Positions 21,181 to 55,036 of a stretch of DNA of 64,000 nt are shown piece after piece. The notes beneath the pieces were generated by a model that made no database searches, had not been told where the DNA came from, and saw nothing but the letters and a program-made list of their open reading frames with translations. Location: the NCBI GenBank assembly GCA_001790445.1, contig MGCQ01000001.1, positions 104,462-168,461 of the forward strand, read 5' to 3'. The position numbers and the translations under genes were made by a program. The first letter of the stretch is position 1; every line of letters starts with the position of its first letter. The DNA is from Candidatus Saccharibacteria bacterium RIFCSPHIGHO2_12_FULL_41_12. Its GTDB lineage: Bacteria; Patescibacteriota; Saccharimonadia; Saccharimonadales; 2-12-FULL-41-12.

Positions 21181-21181
21181 T

Positions 21182-21226
21182 CCTCCGTCGCTATGTTTTG
21201 ACATAGCTATGGGGGATTATTTTTTG
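21182..21226 (+). terminator. Hairpin plus T-run terminator directly after tRNA-Asn
   Basis: Stem GCTATGT/ACATAGC with an outer CCTCC/GGGGG extension, followed by TTATTTTTT. Confidence 0.65.
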
Positions 21227-21268: not shown

Positions 21269-21357
21269 GGTAGTTGTCGGTTCGTTCATAAGAAGCTCTC
21301 GCAGAAGCTTGCTCCGAGAAAGCTTTGCAGTGTGCCAAAGGCAGCCCCACCCCGAGA
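21269..21357 (+). repeat. tRNA-Asn-derived T-arm fragment carrying a ~62-nt insertion (repeat B), a direct repeat of 23890-23975
   Basis: GTTGTCGGTTCG + insert (TTCATAAGAAGCTCTCGCAGAAGCTTGC…GGCAGCC) + CCACCCCGAGA. Roughly 90% identical by eye to the 23868-23980 copy. Confidence 0.8.
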
Positions 21358-21379
21358 ATCAATTCAGATTCAAGATACT

Positions 21380-21541: not shown

Positions 21542-23335
21542 ATGATAGATAATAGCGATGTTCAACCTAACTTAGACAATACGAATGATCAAGAGATATT
21601 TGAATGCGAAAAAAATCAATTGTTAAATGATAGAAATACTTACCCCCCTACTTCTGCTTCAGTAGAGAAGACACTCAACACGGATATACGCCCCACTGGC
21701 ATCCCAGAACTTGATCAAGTTCTTTATGGAGGAATGCCTTCAAACGCAACTGTTATTTTAGCTGGCGGACCTGGCACAGGAAAAACAACACTCGCCTTGC
21801 AATGGCTTGTCGCAGGGTACAAACAGTACAATGAACCCGGTCTATACATCACAGCTACCGAGCCCATCAACAAAGCTTTAAGCAATTTAAAAAAACATGA
21901 GTTTGGCAAAGAATTTGTAATGAACAAAGATACTATAGTTTTTGAAGATCTTCGGACAATTATTAGTAATCTGAATATGAAAGAAGAGAATCTTGTCGAC
22001 GAAAATCTTGATCGGATTATTGACGCAATCTCTGATTTAATTCAGACAAGCGGTGCCAAGCGAGTCGTTATTGATTCTATTACCGCTCTCACATATGGCC
22101 TCCAGGAGAAAAGCCAAGTTCGCAAATTCATTCATCATATGGACGCCCTTATAACGCTTTCTGGCGTAAATATTATTTTAATCTCAGAAGCGTCAGGTGC
22201 TGACCGCTCCGTTTTTGGGGTTGAGGAATTTATAGCTGATGGCATCATCAGATTGACACGAGCCAGGGAGAGCAACGAACTCGTTCATTATCTAGAAATT
22301 ATAAAAATGCGCACGATATCATATAATTCACGACCAATCTCTTATAAAATTACGCCACATGGAATTAAGTTATTTCCTGACACAGAACAAGATTTGACTT
22401 ATCAATCATCATCTAAGCGCATTACTACAGGTATCCCCGGTTTAGACGAAATGACCGGCGGGGGATTTATAGAAGGATCAGCTATACTTGTCACCGGCAC
22501 ATCAGGAGCCGGCAAATCAATCTTGTCCCTACAATTTTTGCAAAATAGATTGCTGGAAAAACAAAATGCGGTTCTCGTTTCCTTTGAAGAATCTAAAGAG
22601 CAAATATACCGAAATGCAAAATCTTTCGGGTGGGATCTCGAATCTTATGAGAAAAATGGTCAGCTCACTGTACTTACAGGATTCCCCGAAAGCAAATATC
22701 CCCAGGAACACATACTAACTATCCAAGAATTGACCGAAAAAACAAATGCCAAGTTTTTAATATTTGATTCTATATCGGCGGTAGAAAGTACATTTTCTTC
22801 TGAAAAAGCACGTGATATGATCACGCATCTCAATGCTTATTTGAAATCTAAAGCCATAACCACCATATATACGAATGCGACACAGACACTTCTTGGCTCA
22901 ACACAAGTAACTGACTCGCGGCTCTCTACGATTACTGACCAAATCATTATGTTACGATACGTTGAAGTGCAGTCGAAATTACGTCATGCGCTCCTCATAC
23001 TTAAAATGCGTGGAAGCAGCCACGATAAAAGTGTGAAAGAGATAGTGTTTGACACAAGTGGTTTAAGAATTACAAATGATTTTTCTGGAATGGAGGGAGT
23101 TCTGACCGGAAGCGCGAAACAAGTTTCCGCATCAACTGAAGAAAAAGTGCATTCTTTATACATGGAGATGCTGGGACCAATGGGAGAAAAACTGTTCAAT
23201 CAAGAGAAAAAAGGCGGTCTATCAGCTACCAAAATACACCTTATGATCCAGGATCTAGCAGATCAGGGAATTCTTGCGAAAGAAAAAAAAGAAGAGTTCT
23301 TTTCTAAAATTAATTCTATTTTTGGCATCAAATAA
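21542..23335 (+). CDS. KaiC-like double RecA-fold ATPase
   Basis: 597 aa. Two tandem KaiC/RadA-like domains with Walker A GGPGTGKT and GTSGAGKS, each preceded by GIP.LD. Has ~55-aa N-terminal and ~80-aa C-terminal extensions. Confidence 0.85.
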   Translation: MIDNSDVQPNLDNTNDQEIFECEKNQLLNDRNTYPPTSASVEKTLNTDIRPTGIPELDQVLYGGMPSNATVILAGGPGTGKTTLALQWLVAGYKQYNEPGLYITATEPINKALSNLKKHEFGKEFVMNKDTIVFEDLRTIISNLNMKEENLVDENLDRIIDAISDLIQTSGAKRVVIDSITALTYGLQEKSQVRKFIHHMDALITLSGVNIILISEASGADRSVFGVEEFIADGIIRLTRARESNELVHYLEIIKMRTISYNSRPISYKITPHGIKLFPDTEQDLTYQSSSKRITTGIPGLDEMTGGGFIEGSAILVTGTSGAGKSILSLQFLQNRLLEKQNAVLVSFEESKEQIYRNAKSFGWDLESYEKNGQLTVLTGFPESKYPQEHILTIQELTEKTNAKFLIFDSISAVESTFSSEKARDMITHLNAYLKSKAITTIYTNATQTLLGSTQVTDSRLSTITDQIIMLRYVEVQSKLRHALLILKMRGSSHDKSVKEIVFDTSGLRITNDFSGMEGVLTGSAKQVSASTEEKVHSLYMEMLGPMGEKLFNQEKKGGLSATKIHLMIQDLADQGILAKEKKEEFFSKINSIFGIK

Positions 23336-23356: not shown

Positions 23357-23854
23357 ATGGACAACACGCCCCTAGACGTTTCTGCTATTATCCTAAATAT
23401 TATTGCTACCATGATCTCTTTCAGTGTGATTGTGCTGATGATCATCCTTATTATGAGAACAAAACTTCTGAGGAGGGGTCTAACGTTTATCAGTGTAGGT
23501 TTTGGAGTTGCAGTATTCTTGCATTTACTAGCTGATTCTTTAGAATTGGCTGGCTATCTGGGCAAGGGCACCCTGATGGATATTATGCCTATATTTATTG
23601 CTGTCGGATCTATCTTAATATTTATTGGGTGTTATAACCTGTTAAAAATTACAAGACCTATCAATAAACTGACAGAAGAAGTACAAAGTATCTCCACTGG
23701 TAAACTGGATATTGAATTGTCTGGAATAGATAGAAAAGACGAGCTCGGAGAGCTAGCGAAAGCTTTTAACCGAATATTAGTAAGTCTCAAACTCGCCATG
23801 AGAGAACAACCAGTCGCAGGATCAGAAATAAGCGAAAAGACCAAAGAAATTTGA
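23357..23854 (+). CDS. Membrane protein with a HAMP domain and no output domain
   Basis: 165 aa. Three TM helices, then HAMP-like ITRPINKLTEEVQSISTGKLDIEL…DELGELAKAFNRILVSL. Confidence 0.75.
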   Translation: MDNTPLDVSAIILNIIATMISFSVIVLMIILIMRTKLLRRGLTFISVGFGVAVFLHLLADSLELAGYLGKGTLMDIMPIFIAVGSILIFIGCYNLLKITRPINKLTEEVQSISTGKLDIELSGIDRKDELGELAKAFNRILVSLKLAMREQPVAGSEISEKTKEI

Positions 23855-23867
23855 AAAGCTAAAAACA

Positions 23868-23980
23868 AGCAAGAAGCTGTTAACTTCGGGGTTGTCGGTT
23901 CGTTCACAAGAAGCTCTCGCAGAAGCTTGCTTCGAGAAAGCTTTGTAGCATACCAAAGGCAGCCCCGACCCCGGGAGCCA
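23868..23980 (+). repeat. Partial tRNA-Asn copy (anticodon arm to CCA) with a 62-nt insertion in the T loop (repeat C)
   Basis: AGCAAGAAGCTGTTAACTTCGGGGTTGTCGGTTCG + 62 nt (23903-23964) + CCGACCCCGGGAGCCA. It lacks the acceptor 5' strand and the D arm. Confidence 0.85.
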
Positions 23981-41426: not shown

Positions 41427-41463
41427 TCCTTCGTCCCTCCGCCTTTTGCGGGGCTACGAAGGA
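41427..41463 (+). terminator. Hairpin directly after tRNA-Ser, with the same flanks as the hairpin after tRNA-Asn
   Basis: TCCTTCG…CGAAGGA outer stem with inner CCGC/GCGG, followed by TTATTGG. Compare TCCTCCGTC…GGGGGATTATTTTTT after tRNA-Asn. Confidence 0.5.
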
Positions 41464-41471
41464 TTATTGGG

Positions 41472-41555
41472 TGCGGGTTCGAACCAAAAGACAAGTTTAC
41501 TCGGGTTCTGAGTGAGTACCGCAGGGAAGAGGCTTCAGCCGATATCCCGCTCTCT
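41472..41555 (+). pseudogene. tRNA-Ser-derived T-arm/acceptor fragment with a ~61-nt insertion in the T loop
   Basis: TGCGGGTTCGAA + 61 nt + TCCCGCTCTCT mirrors the genuine 3' end CGCGGGTTCGAATCCCGCTCTCTCC located 60 nt upstream. Confidence 0.75.
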
Positions 41556-52687: not shown

Positions 52688-53284
52688 TTTTGCCAATTGA
52701 TCTGTGCTGGCATCTGCTGAAAAGGCATTGTGCTGAGCAAACAAAATGCTTTTCATACCAGCTGATTTCGCGGCTTGAACATCAACGTGGGTGTCGCCAA
52801 CATACACGCAGTTTTCAGGAAGAATCCCAAGTTTTTTGCCTGCCAACAACAAGGGAGTTGGGTCCGGTTTATGCTTGTCTGTGTCTTCATACGCAACCAC
52901 AACTTTAAAGTAATTTTGCATGGCAACGAGGTCTGGTATTTTAAAGATACTGTCGCGGATTCTGCTGGTAACAATTCCCAATCGATAGTTTTTACTGAGT
53001 TCGATTATAGTTTTTTCAAGATCTGGCATTGCACTAGGGAATGAACGATCCCTAACAACAAGATTCTTGCCCAGCTCCCAGATACGATTTATCTCCTCCT
53101 CGTCTTCTATGGACGTATGCAACTGAATAACTTTCTTCATATTATGGTGAAAATACGGTCTGTACTGCTCAGCCGTTAAGGGCTCGTGGCCGGTTTTGTT
53201 AAAAAGCTCAGAAAAAAACTCTGCATTTGACTCAAGCGAATCAATCATCACCCCGTCAACATCAAATATAACAGCTTCGATCAT
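52664..53284 (-). CDS. HAD-IA hydrolase (beta-phosphoglucomutase/phosphatase-like)
   Basis: 206 aa. AVIFDVDGVMIDS, VTS and VGDT..D motifs. Confidence 0.8.
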   Translation of the reverse strand: MIEAVIFDVDGVMIDSLESNAEFFSELFNKTGHEPLTAEQYRPYFHHNMKKVIQLHTSIEDEEEINRIWELGKNLVVRDRSFPSAMPDLEKTIIELSKNYRLGIVTSRIRDSIFKIPDLVAMQNYFKVVVAYEDTDKHKPDPTPLLLAGKKLGILPENCVYVGDTHVDVQAAKSAGMKSILFAQHNAFSADASTDQLAKLPEIIKG

Positions 53285-53321
53285 ATATTATTTATCCCAA
53301 ACTTATCATTTAATAATTTCA

Positions 53322-53406
53322 TGGTGCCGGAGGAGGGACTCGAACCCTCAAGCCTTGCGGCATGCGATTTTGAGTCGCACGCGTATACCAATTCCGCCAC
53401 TCCGGC
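53322..53406 (-). tRNA. tRNA-Leu (CAA), CCA encoded
   Basis: 85 nt on the minus strand. Acceptor GCCGGAG/CTCCGGC, anticodon stem TGCGA/TCGCA with loop CTCAAAA, long variable arm, T arm GAGGG-TTCGAGT-CCCTC, then A-CCA. Confidence 0.95.
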
Positions 53407-53409
53407 ATT

Positions 53410-53658
53410 TTATCTATTATACACTAAGGATTTTAAGAATTCTTTACCTACACCTGATTTTAAATACTTTTCACGTTTGCGTGCTTCTAGCCCTGTCCCG
53501 CACATCTCGCTGTACACAAGCCTGAGAGGAGCATAAGCTTTTGTTGAACGACTCTTACCCTCATTATGTTGCTGAATTCTTCTTTTTAGATTACTGGTCA
53601 TCCCCACATAAATGTAGTTTTTTGATTCACTTTGTAGGGCATAGACATAATAATTCAT
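53410..53658 (-). CDS. GIY-YIG nuclease family protein (UPF0213-like, 82 aa)
   Basis: YVYAL…IYVGMTSNLKRRIQQHNEG…E…REKYLK motifs. The stop codon ends 3 nt before the mature 5' end of tRNA-Leu. Confidence 0.85.
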   Translation of the reverse strand: MNYYVYALQSESKNYIYVGMTSNLKRRIQQHNEGKSRSTKAYAPLRLVYSEMCGTGLEARKREKYLKSGVGKEFLKSLVYNR

Positions 53659-53677
53659 GATAAAGGATTGTATTTAA

Positions 53678-53748
53678 GTTGCACGCGCCTACCTGCGGTA
53701 GGTAAATATACCAATCTTGCCTGCCGGAGGCAGGTCCGCCACTCCGGC
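53678..53748 (-). pseudogene. tRNA-Leu 5'-half-like fragment interrupted by two hairpin insertions
   Basis: The minus strand reads GCCGGAGTGGCGGA-[CCTGCCTCCGGCAGGCAAG]-ATTGGTATA-[TTTACCTACCGCAGGTAGG]-CGCGTGCAAC. The real tRNA has GCCGGAGTGGCGGAATTGGTATACGCGTGCGAC. Confidence 0.8.
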
Positions 53749-53779
53749 ATTTCGGATTTATTCGGAAAAGACTGTGCGT

Positions 53780-53788
53780 ATTATACCA
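53780..53788 (-). promoter_or_regulatory. Extended -10 promoter (TGGTATAAT) upstream of the fragment, GIY-YIG and tRNA-Leu
   Basis: Minus-strand TGGTATAAT lies ~31 nt upstream of the tRNA-like fragment. No other promoter-like hexamer was seen between it and tRNA-Leu. Confidence 0.45.
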
Positions 53789-53839
53789 AAGTTAGCTTGT
53801 CAGAAACAGATATACTATAATAATTGAAGTTAAACGCTT

Positions 53840-55036
53840 ATGAATGATCCAACTAAAAAAACACCTCTTGATGCACTCGGGGACGACAATAATCCAGAAC
53901 TTGCGGCTGAGTTAGTTAGGAAGAAATTAGATAAACTTTATGGCAAAGAACCCAGTGCCAAAGAAGAGATTCAAGAAGTTCAGCATGAAGATTCCAGCGA
54001 TATGTCCAAACATCAGCACTACATGGACGACCTTTCCAAATCAGGACTTAGTCTACACGAAATTCAAATAAAGTGGCATGAATATTATAACGCTCTGCCA
54101 GACAACGAAAAGAGACAAGTTTGGCGAGAATTTTATCGGCACCACGAGCAACAAAAAAATAAATTGCAGCATGCCCAAAGTTCTCGGAAGCAAACCACTT
54201 CAATAGCCAGTGCAAGTCATGTACACGCGCAACATTCTGCCAAAATTCATGACAAAGACACCACAGAAGCTGTGAAGAATGATTTGATCAATCGCATCCA
54301 AACGCGGTCCAAACCAATAACCAAAAATCAGCACGTTCGATCGCTCATCTTTGGCTTTTCAATGGGTGGTTTTGTGCTGTTGGTGCTACTTTTTAGCTTT
54401 TTCAATGAAAGATTCATCACGCCATTTATACGGCCTAGCACTAACGTTAGCGCCTCGGCAATTATCGTTAACCCAGAGGGGGCGGGCACTGCATCAGGAC
54501 CAGAGCCAAAAATAATCATCCCAAAGATCAATGTTGAGGCCCCTGTGGTGTATGACGAGCCATCGATAGAAGAAAAAGCCGTCCAAAAGGGGCTGGAAAG
54601 AGGTGTTGTCCACTACGGCACAACTCCAAATCCTGGAGAAAAGGGAAACGCCGTTATATTTGGCCACAGTAGTGGCAATATCATCAATAGTGGTCAATAT
54701 AAATTTGCCTTTATTCTTCTCAAAAGTCTCGAAAAAAACGACACTTTTATTATTGATAAAGATGGCAAAAGATATGCCTACAAGGTTTATGAAAAATATG
54801 TCACTGCACCGACGGATGTTAGCATACTCAAAGCTAGGGACCGTCCATCGACAATGACACTTGTTACTTGTGACCCACCTGGTATGTCGACAAACCGCCT
54901 AATAGTAGTCGGTGAACAAATTTTTCCTGATCCTGTCGCGAACAAAGAGAGTACTGTAGTTAATCAAAATGAAATACCTAAAACCCTGCCAAGTAATAGT
55001 CCTAGTCTTTGGCAAAAAATTAAAAACTGGTTCTAA
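53840..55036 (+). CDS. Sortase-family transpeptidase with a long N-terminal region and a TM anchor
   Basis: 398 aa. GNAVIFGHS and TLVTCDP (TLxTC) catalytic motifs. Confidence 0.85.
   Translation: MNDPTKKTPLDALGDDNNPELAAELVRKKLDKLYGKEPSAKEEIQEVQHEDSSDMSKHQHYMDDLSKSGLSLHEIQIKWHEYYNALPDNEKRQVWREFYRHHEQQKNKLQHAQSSRKQTTSIASASHVHAQHSAKIHDKDTTEAVKNDLINRIQTRSKPITKNQHVRSLIFGFSMGGFVLLVLLFSFFNERFITPFIRPSTNVSASAIIVNPEGAGTASGPEPKIIIPKINVEAPVVYDEPSIEEKAVQKGLERGVVHYGTTPNPGEKGNAVIFGHSSGNIINSGQYKFAFILLKSLEKNDTFIIDKDGKRYAYKVYEKYVTAPTDVSILKARDRPSTMTLVTCDPPGMSTNRLIVVGEQIFPDPVANKESTVVNQNEIPKTLPSNSPSLWQKIKNWF

Follow-up and report, generated by a model that had tools for sequence, protein, structure and literature searches.

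A small GIY-YIG nuclease gene, a 20-nt palindrome and a partial tRNA copy: a putative selfish cassette at a tRNA-Leu gene of a Saccharibacterium

Introduction

Small stand-alone GIY-YIG proteins of about 80-100 amino acids (aa) are very abundant and remained uncharacterised until the 2025 paper on Ssn, a nuclease that cleaves single-stranded DNA (ssDNA) site-specifically next to a hairpin and does not act on double-stranded DNA or RNA (Chenal et al., 2025, PMC11893778). In Neisseria, a control of incoming ssDNA has been proposed for SsnA, a role of Ssn in transformation was reported and the family was compared with IS200/IS605, whereas the way in which the associated hairpin repeats spread and the role of the enzyme outside Neisseria were left open (PMC11893778). 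We report here on a locus in a stretch of 64,000 nucleotides (nt) from Candidatus Saccharibacteria bacterium RIFCSPHIGHO2_12_FULL_41_12 (contig MGCQ01000001.1, positions 104,462 to 168,461), hereafter the window, in which the gene of an 82-aa GIY-YIG protein is wedged between the intact gene of tRNA-Leu(CAA) and a partial copy of it, interrupted by two hairpins. These hairpins are worn versions of a palindrome that accompanies related genes in several phyla, named P below, and the whole is probably a compact selfish cassette that has inserted into the transcription unit of the tRNA.

The family to which this gene belongs and Ssn have much in common. In both cases a single-domain GIY-YIG protein of less than 100 aa is found (with 82 aa, the window protein is within the family criterion of at most 150 aa), and its gene is linked to a hairpin-forming inverted repeat of 20-50 nt, which also occurs elsewhere without the gene (PMC11893778). 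The differences concern the repeat as well as its surroundings: P is unrelated in sequence to the NTS consensus and is a perfect 20-nt palindrome without an oriented flank; it is present on only one side of the gene, inside a partial tRNA copy; the gene itself is wedged into tRNA-Leu or tRNA-Arg genes, and the C-terminal motif of the protein is unlike that of Ssn. Neither tRNA nor Bacteroidetes are mentioned in the Ssn paper (PMC11893778).

Another parallel is offered by the mORFs of fungal mitochondria (Allomyces atp6; Glomus atp6, atp9, cox2 and nad3), where a mobile endonuclease open reading frame (ORF) resides in a gene, part of the gene is duplicated, and a functional copy stands beside a displaced fragment (PMC3630166). 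There, however, protein-coding genes are the targets, LAGLIDADG or GIY-YIG enzymes of full size are involved, and the functional terminus is of foreign origin, whereas the intact tRNA is here native to the lineage; the displaced copies carry no inserted palindrome. SegB of phage T4 (PMC2330249) likewise has a GIY-YIG catalytic domain, adjoins tRNA genes and is inherited selfishly. Unlike the present protein, which is a catalytic domain only and whose cassette is nearly absent from viral contigs, SegB is multi-domain, cuts duplex DNA and is phage-borne, and it is not known to come with a partial tRNA duplication or a palindrome.

Short dispersed palindromes, a single gene for a hairpin-recognising enzyme and clean insertions are also characteristic of REP/BIME sequences and their RAYT, of IS200/IS605, and of the Rickettsia palindromic elements. 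REP/RAYT and IS200/IS605 depend nevertheless on HUH/Y1 transposases with covalent intermediates, whereas a GIY-YIG hydrolase cannot perform strand transfer and P measures just 20 nt. Finally, the closest solved folds belong to UPF0213 (Bacillus halodurans BH0048, 1zg2; Bacillus subtilis YazA) and to the nuclease domain of Slx1. UPF0213 genes differ from the present one in being housekeeping-like (yazA is located between trmNF and rsmI in B. subtilis), and we know of no association of them with repeats or tRNA fragments; Slx1 is a structure-specific nuclease of branched DNA, with an extra RING domain and a partner protein. In the literature that was searched, the palindrome sequence was absent and small GIY-YIG genes with tRNA-Leu fragments were not described; the package of nuclease and palindrome at tRNA-Leu and tRNA-Arg genes appears to be undescribed.

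A Cassette Inserted at tRNA-Leu(CAA)

The strongest indication of an insertion comes from relatives. Through orthologues of the divergently transcribed sortase neighbour, four corresponding sites were found in other Saccharibacteria contigs (L203, L206, L204 and L205, whose sortases are 76%, 75%, 68% and 63% identical to that of the window, respectively). At all four, the gene next to the sortase is that of tRNA-Leu(CAA), on the other strand, and none of these sites holds a GIY-YIG ORF, a copy of P or a P-interrupted fragment. The comparison of the occupied locus with four ORF-less orthologous sites leads to the conclusion that the cassette is an insertion. A preliminary description of the window, made from its letters alone, had already suggested a nuclease cassette that had inserted at, or duplicated, the 5' half of the tRNA, and had regarded a locus without empty sites as an outcome that would speak against it; such sites do exist.

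The block gacaagctaactttggtataata, which stands directly upstream of tRNA-Leu(CAA) in L203 and L206, stands upstream of the fragment in the window (Table 1). It thus represents the presumed native promoter block of tRNA-Leu, which makes a co-transcription of fragment, ORF and tRNA plausible; the extended -10 pointed out previously is part of it. The first fragment block occupies, relative to this promoter, the position of the native tRNA start. In turn, the intact tRNA-Leu(CAA) of the window and the native tRNA of L204 share one sequence (100% identity), so that the mismatches in block 3 are to be attributed to decay of the fragment. In the window, then, the native promoter block is followed by the displaced copy of nt 1-39 with its two inserts, by leader and ORF, and lastly by the native tRNA. 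Judging from the three mismatches and from the wear of the palindromes, the insertion is old: the ORF is intact in this genome, and the P copies and the inner fragment have decayed.

Table 1. Elements of the cassette locus, in their order on the minus strand (positions of the window)
Feature	Coordinates	Strand	Details
Putative native tRNA-Leu promoter block, gacaagctaactttggtataata	53779..53801	-	Includes the extended -10-like TGGTATAAT, 53788-53780
tRNA-fragment block 1, GCCGGAGTGGCGGA	53735..53748	-	Copies tRNA-Leu nt 1-14; 100% identity to the intact tRNA
Palindrome copy P1, CCTGCCTCCGGCAGGCAAG	53716..53734	-	19-nt hairpin insert, clean, after tRNA nt 14
tRNA-fragment block 2, ATTGGTATA	53707..53715	-	D-loop nt 15-23; same as the intact tRNA
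Palindrome copy P2, TTTACCTACCGCAGGTAGG	53688..53706	-	19-nt insert at the border of D-loop and D-stem 3' strand
tRNA-fragment block 3, CGCGTGCaACTtAAAt	53672..53687	-	nt 24-39; 3 mismatches (G>A, C>T, A>T) to the intact tRNA
Leader, acaatcctttatc	53659..53671	-	13 nt between fragment end and ATG
GIY-YIG nuclease ORF	53410..53658	-	82 aa, single domain; Pfam PF01541, E=1.6e-17; ATG 53658, TAA 53412-53410
Intact tRNA-Leu(CAA)	53322..53406	-	Encoded CCA; ARAGORN; Rfam 59.7 bits; G1 at 53406

The fragment blocks were assigned by manual reading and by chained high-scoring segment pairs of blastn-short. They agree with the tRNA-Leu 5' look-alike bearing two hairpins that had been delimited in the preliminary description, as does the distance of 3 nt between the ORF stop and G1 of the intact tRNA. 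Only the spacing at the other end needs adjustment, since the ATG does follow shortly after the fragment, at 13 nt from the end of homology, and the 19 nt given earlier were counted from an earlier end point. Homology ceases at the 3' end of the anticodon loop, and the GGTATA of block 2 is lineage-specific, being present in L203-L205 too. The region recurs with 100% identity in five further public contigs from this strain, so the layout is not an artefact of assembly.

Some discordances among the empty sites deserve mention. The tRNA-Leu(CAA) sequence does not follow the sortase: L204, with the less similar sortase, has the tRNA of the window, and the tRNAs of L203 and L206 show some 10 differences from it, most of them in the variable arm. 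Downstream of the tRNA, a nucleoside deoxyribosyltransferase gene is found in L203 and L206, versus a HAD hydrolase gene in the window; a metagenome scan with this HAD neighbour gave a closest match of 40% identity, without synteny. L205 (2700-2930) has ORF-less tRNA-Leu fragments on either side of its intact tRNA, namely GCCGCGGTGG upstream, followed by about 49 nt, and GGTTCAGGTCTCTCCCGCGGCACCA downstream, after 53 nt. Fragments of this ORF-less kind seem common in its lineage.

The Same Architecture Across Phyla

Homologues are 57-71% identical and come chiefly from Bacteroidota. A scan of one genome per GTDB species yielded 265 relatives, the best 80 of which were analysed. A tRNA gene on the same strand lies within 200 nt of the ORF in 77 of the 80 loci, which bears out the adjacency to tRNA genes that had been suggested as worth surveying; in two of the exceptions the tRNA start is lost to N-masking or to a contig end, and the third is a tandem array. 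The ORF precedes the tRNA in 54 of these 77 loci and follows it in the other 23. Where it precedes, the distance from stop codon to tRNA has a median of 4 nt and is at most 13 nt in 48 of the 54. The abutting gene is mostly a tRNA-Leu, with any of five anticodons, and in one clade a tRNA-Arg.

The partial repeat is just as constant. In 71 of the 77 loci, the side of the ORF away from the tRNA bears an exact copy, at least 12 nt long, of part of that tRNA, as compared with none of 68 control regions, and in 64 of those 71 the copy contains P as well. In the ORF-first layout the repeat starts 0-4 nt before the tRNA +1 (43/50 loci); in the tRNA-first layout it takes in the intrinsic terminator of the tRNA, and the P-bearing fragment is thus encountered, in 23 loci, downstream of the ORF and past the duplicated terminator. 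The extent of the fragment varies from ~22 to ~73 nt, and the leaders that precede the ORFs are short and devoid of conservation.

Two particular arrangements were observed along the way. Downstream of the ORF in L011 (~2300-2480) there is a tandem array of a 19-nt unit, TGGTCTGCCTTTGGTAGAC, made up of a piece resembling half of the palindrome and of tRNA-Leu D-loop nt 16-24. On a viral contig (L199, 495-900), a cassette of the same kind is located at a tRNA-Lys(UUU)-like gene: its upstream fragment carries P at GGTA^GAGC and has an uninterrupted anticodon loop, and its downstream copy, for which ARAGORN makes no call, bears a long insertion after ...GGTTGGCT that is possibly an intron.

The Palindrome P

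The inserts in the tRNA copies correspond to one perfect 20-nt palindrome, CCTGCCTGCCGGCAGGCAGG, and both hairpins of the window are recognisable as degenerate copies of it. P1 departs from P by 1 deletion and 1 substitution; P2 is more degenerate and, read directly, displays paired G>A and C>T changes that preserve the stem. On direct reading too, the reverse complement of insert 1 is identical to insert 2 at 14 of 19 positions, which makes them one unit in opposite orientations. A degenerate pattern written for this unit matched the 64 kb twice, at P1 and P2, and none of 100 shuffles produced two or more matches. As DNA, the intact palindrome is predicted to form an 8-bp stem with a CCGG loop (-8.0 kcal/mol), and each window copy retains a stem of 6 bp (-5.4 kcal/mol for P1; -4.4 kcal/mol, z = -4.5, for P2). 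The hairpins, formerly taken for a local decoration of the tRNA copy, are instead worn copies of a sequence that is conserved across phyla.

Indeed, P was matched 95 times with at most 3 edits in 81 loci, 53 times exactly. At least one match exists in 77 of the 81, nearly always within 150 nt of the ORF and on the side away from the intact tRNA, in hosts from Bacteroidota, Patescibacteria (Saccharibacteria, Paceibacterota, Nomurabacteria, Spechtbacteria), Ignavibacteria and Elusimicrobia. Insertions of P could be mapped in 55 cases, every one of them clean, with neither duplication nor deletion of the target. They form clusters just after nt 14 or 15, where the D-loop meets the 3' strand of the D-stem, where the anticodon loop ends on its 3' side, at nt 44/45 and on the borders of the T-loop, and the ORF-proximal ends of the fragments coincide with these same clusters. 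In five cases (L006, L008, L009, L190, L194) P is nested in the centre of another P.

Two comparisons bear on the dynamics of the palindrome. In loci of the Algoriphagus-type clade P is exact even though the ORFs are separated by synonymous distances (dS) of 0.1-0.7, which argues that it is either constrained or continually renewed. Among orthologous Chitinophagaceae loci, L020 and L072 have fewer copies than L074 and L016, and such differences in number imply that P is gained independently of the ORF. Moreover, IMG/VR viral contigs contain the exact 20-mer in 35 stretches, hardly any of which has the ORF or a tRNA nearby. At viral P sites a purine^T preference was noted (15 of 40, against 8.6% of controls).

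The idea that P always inserts in hairpin loops was discarded, given that 40 viral P sites and 1,178 controls were alike in the predicted structure of the healed junction. That the cassette is phage-borne was likewise rejected, the scan of viral contigs for the ORF having returned one weak match.

Individual insertions outside the cassettes were also seen. A viral tRNA-Met(CAT) gene (L192, 2239-2330) is complete except for an exact P in its variable loop and is called by ARAGORN as a 92-nt tRNA; the same tRNA-Met is found again in L169 with a damaged T-arm. In a Saccharibacteria genome (L078, ~1005-1024) an exact P lies in-frame in a uvrB-like ORF (...YLKN-LPAGRQ-VKAEYLHSDI...), and Rickettsia palindromic elements may sit in-frame in genes in the same manner.

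The GIY-YIG Protein

The window protein matches PF01541 with 64 bits, well above the cut-off of 22.6. Y6, Y17, G19, R27, N32 and E63 are invariant in 24 homologues, the window protein included, and all homologues have in common the C-terminal subfamily motif REKYLKSG[VI]GKEFLK; most members of the family are 77-85 aa long, and 3,578 cluster representatives match the family profile at E<=1e-10. The AlphaFold2 model (predicted local distance difference test score of 93.7) consists of a minimal GIY-YIG domain (strands 3-10, 16-21 and 45-53; helices 24-32 and 56-67) and a C-terminal helix, with no DNA-binding domain. In a Foldseek search of the PDB, the best match was UPF0213 BH0048 (1zg2, 37% identity) and then Slx1 (query-normalised template-modelling score 0.64-0.69); I-TevI and UvrC came well below, I-TevI in 12th place with E=0.25. 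The ratio of nonsynonymous to synonymous substitution rates (dN/dS) is 0.06-0.22 in pairs of close homologues (the pair L013/L053, mis-registered, was left out), and the ORF is thus under purifying selection.

Outside the family, the window protein is 44% identical (E=4e-14; hhalign probability 97.7%) to a GIY-YIG protein of Azospirillum lipoferum. Its gene, of 97 aa, was found by tblastn against plasmids between sufB and sufC on plasmid AZO_p3 (L166), and has on both sides inverted pairs of a 28-nt sequence, CGTCATCCCCGCGAAGGCGGGGATCCAG (478-563 and 903-987), which fits the published NTS/SRM consensus (PMC11893778); the arrangement reads as a textbook NTS-ssn-NTS unit. Bit scores are 36-48 to this protein and, equally, 38-47 to B. 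subtilis YazA/UPF0213. Matches in NCBIfam, PADLOC and PHROGs were all weak and of a generic GIY-YIG kind.

A Selfish Cassette and Its Alternatives

On the whole, the locus is best understood as a compact selfish cassette in the tRNA-Leu(CAA) transcription unit, composed of an Ssn-like nuclease, its cognate P and a partial tRNA repeat, and we regard this as probable from the sequence comparisons presented above. At the descriptive level (an inserted selfish nuclease cassette, a tRNA duplication, a cognate palindrome) the model is well supported; the steps by which it might operate are what we infer. Transcription of the nuclease gene would start at the tRNA promoter, and RNase P would cut the tRNA free of the mRNA 3' end. 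By analogy with Ssn, the protein would bind the P hairpin in ssDNA and nick nearby; the resulting breaks would be repaired by copying, the conserved tRNA sequence providing a portable homology. In this way the ORF could move among the genes of tRNA-Leu isoacceptors and among genomes, leaving the tRNA functional. The same activity might spread P as a clean 20-nt insertion, and such insertions would persist only where the DNA tolerates them, as the redundant tRNA fragment does.

Evidence for movement is found in the relationships among the ORFs. Those of L016 and L021 are 81% identical and adjoin different Leu isoacceptors (CAA and GAG), and the same holds for L033 and L075 (81%; CAA and TAA). 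One Sunxiuqinia metagenome-assembled genome contains two identical copies, and tandem cassettes are present in L027, L030, L032 and L085. The ORFs at tRNA-Arg make up a clade of their own. The gain of P within orthologous Chitinophagaceae loci and its occurrence without the gene point to mobility as well. Furthermore, the nearest relative of the window ORF is not to be found in other Saccharibacteria: it belongs to a Bacteroidota clade, with 70% identity and the opposite layout.

Several considerations weigh against this interpretation, and they should be kept in view. Binding and cleavage of P by this subfamily are assumed by analogy with Ssn, and by pairwise scores the family is placed equidistantly from the Ssn-type protein of Azospirillum and from YazA/UPF0213, with a C-terminus that differs from that of Ssn. 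A hydrolytic nuclease alone cannot explain clean 20-nt insertions. The fragment blocks that flank P both match the resident, isoacceptor-specific tRNA, and a fragment that is resident-specific on both sides of P is better accommodated by an in-situ duplication than by a homology arm imported from a donor. The loop-border pattern in the tRNA fragments may arise from a weak purine^pyrimidine (R^Y) preference or from shared ancestry. Long vertical retention with strong purifying selection, as in the Algoriphagus-type clade, also fits a host-beneficial role or domestication. In the window itself both copies of P are degenerate, and the system may no longer be active there. The tRNA may also be transcribed on its own: among the last codons of the ORF (53410-53424, minus strand), GTG TAT AAT AGA TAA, there is a perfect TATAAT, 9 nt ahead of G1 of tRNA-Leu, which may serve as an independent, internal promoter. 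Many homologous loci end alike, with TAA and then AAT(T) ahead of the tRNA +1. In a simple scan for -35/-10 promoters and terminators, the TGGTATAAT site was not among the calls, and the result was not decisive either way.

A bolder version can be formulated, and we hold it as a tentative possibility: the nuclease (~78 aa) and the 20-nt P would constitute a minimal autonomous mobile system, in which nicking of hairpin ssDNA drives the copying and insertion of P, and the gene homes into tRNA-Leu and tRNA-Arg across phyla, with the universally conserved tRNA sequence as its homology arm and expressed by way of the tRNA promoter and of RNase P. If true, P would be among the smallest mobile DNAs known, and a mechanism would be offered for the multiplication of the repeats associated with Ssn (NTS/SRM), possibly also of Rickettsia-type palindromes.

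Among the other explanations, that of a domesticated and immobile host nuclease fares best, and we still judge it unlikely. The protein would then serve, for instance, to control incoming P-bearing ssDNA or to process hairpin DNA, the tRNA site would guarantee its expression, and the fragment would be the fossil of one ancient insertion per lineage. The low dN/dS values and the maintenance of the gene at the same tRNA-Leu(CAA) locus in several Algoriphagus-type genomes speak in its favour, as does the occurrence of P in viral contigs, which could make it a target; a host role of Ssn in transformation has been reported (PMC11893778). A patchy distribution in which close relatives have empty sites is nevertheless hard to reconcile with domestication, and so are ORFs that hop among isoacceptors or exist in multiple and tandem copies, a window ORF whose nearest relative resides in another phylum, and the weak, generic character of the PADLOC matches.

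Slightly less credible is a classical free-standing homing endonuclease of the SegB type, which the preliminary description had cited as an example. A double-strand break in an ORF-less tRNA-Leu would be repaired by copying the ORF with the flanking tRNA, and the palindromes would only destroy the site or the homology in the fragment. Enzymes of the Seg/I-TevI type possess an N-terminal GIY-YIG domain and a C-terminal DNA-binding domain, in ~200-250 aa. The protein considered here is a bare catalytic domain of the family's 77-85 aa range, lacking the DNA-binding domain that Seg and I-TevI enzymes need, its fold is closer to UPF0213/Slx1 than to I-TevI, and its identity to the Ssn-type protein of Azospirillum sets it further apart from Seg-like enzymes; TIGR01453 (grpIintron_endo) scored 18.2 bits against a cut-off of 56. 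Homing does have support, in that empty and occupied alleles both exist, ORF clades follow the identity of the tRNA (those linked to tRNA-Arg form a clade separate from those at tRNA-Leu), the partial duplication of a target gene beside a mobile endonuclease ORF is known from the fungal mitochondrial mORFs (PMC3630166), and SegB is active in a tRNA gene cluster (PMC2330249). Even so, the adjoining intact tRNA is the same as that of the empty site L204, so that no sequence-based immunity of the occupied allele is visible, and homing leaves unexplained both an exact 20-nt palindrome across phyla and its ORF-less copies in viruses. A related candidate, an endonuclease encoded by a group I intron of tRNA-Leu, was rejected: in 53250-53900 an Rfam scan by E-value matched the tRNA only and found no group I intron structure, and the downstream tRNA is uninterrupted according to ARAGORN and Rfam.

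A function at the RNA level, with the tRNA-like fragment and its hairpins as a structured leader (for instance a decoy for RNase P, or an element of the nuclease mRNA for translational control or autoregulation), has very little to commend it. The fragment does fall in the presumed 5' untranslated region where the ORF precedes the tRNA, and compensatory changes keep the hairpins of the window. The leader of the window, however, has an ordinary RNA folding energy (z = -1.05), the same Rfam scan detected no family besides the tRNA, the fragment varies in extent, and its position downstream of the ORF and of the duplicated terminator in the tRNA-first loci is at odds with a leader. Finally, a duplicated integrase attachment site or a chance resemblance is effectively refuted by the ORF content of the cassette and by the counts in loci and controls: tRNA genes are common integration sites and partial tRNA repeats are left behind there, but islands would be expected to carry a tyrosine or serine recombinase and to repeat the tRNA 3' end, whereas the repeat here is the 5' part and encloses just 265 nt, with the GIY-YIG gene as the only ORF and no integrase, and chance does not yield a pattern present in 71 of 77 loci and absent from the controls.

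Implications

This family constitutes an unusually clean natural experiment, with a fixed target in tRNA-Leu or tRNA-Arg genes, empty and occupied alleles, and a perfectly conserved palindrome whose insertions can be mapped to the base; some of the hosts, among them the Bacteroidota Algoriphagus, Dawidia and Imperialibacter, are culturable. The family also illustrates that tRNA genes can be invaded without being inactivated, and that the ultra-small genomes of the candidate phyla radiation bear such elements. For the annotation of tRNAs it matters that hairpin-bearing partial copies are the footprints of a specific element and not the result of random decay. Should the nuclease be guided by hairpins as Ssn is, a new pair of enzyme and site would become available for ssDNA tools.

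Other tRNA Loci of the Window

The preliminary description had extended the phenomenon to the tRNA-Asn and tRNA-Ser loci of the window. The comparison does not hold: these lack the palindrome and a GIY-YIG ORF, and their inserts are of ~60 nt. Two partial copies of tRNA-Asn are located at 21273-21358 and 23868-23980 (plus strand), the second of which starts near nt 24 and reaches the CCA end. Over 76 nt the two are 92% identical; each has the same T-loop insertion of ~60 nt, and together they flank the genes of a KaiC-like ATPase (21542-23335) and of a HAMP-domain protein (23357-23854). Neither P in the insertion nor a GIY-YIG ORF or an integrase was found in this region. Downstream of tRNA-Ser, at 41473-41555 (plus strand), a copy of the T-arm, GCGGGTTCGAA ... 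TCCCGCTCTCT, is split near the end of the T-loop by a 61-nt insertion (41484-41544), which is unrelated to P and has no second copy within the window. Directly after both tRNAs, tRNA-Asn (21181-21222) and tRNA-Ser (41427-41468), a similar hairpin is present on the plus strand, beginning with TCCTYCGTC and ending in GGATTATT, so the two genes may share a 3' element, for instance a terminator or a processing site.

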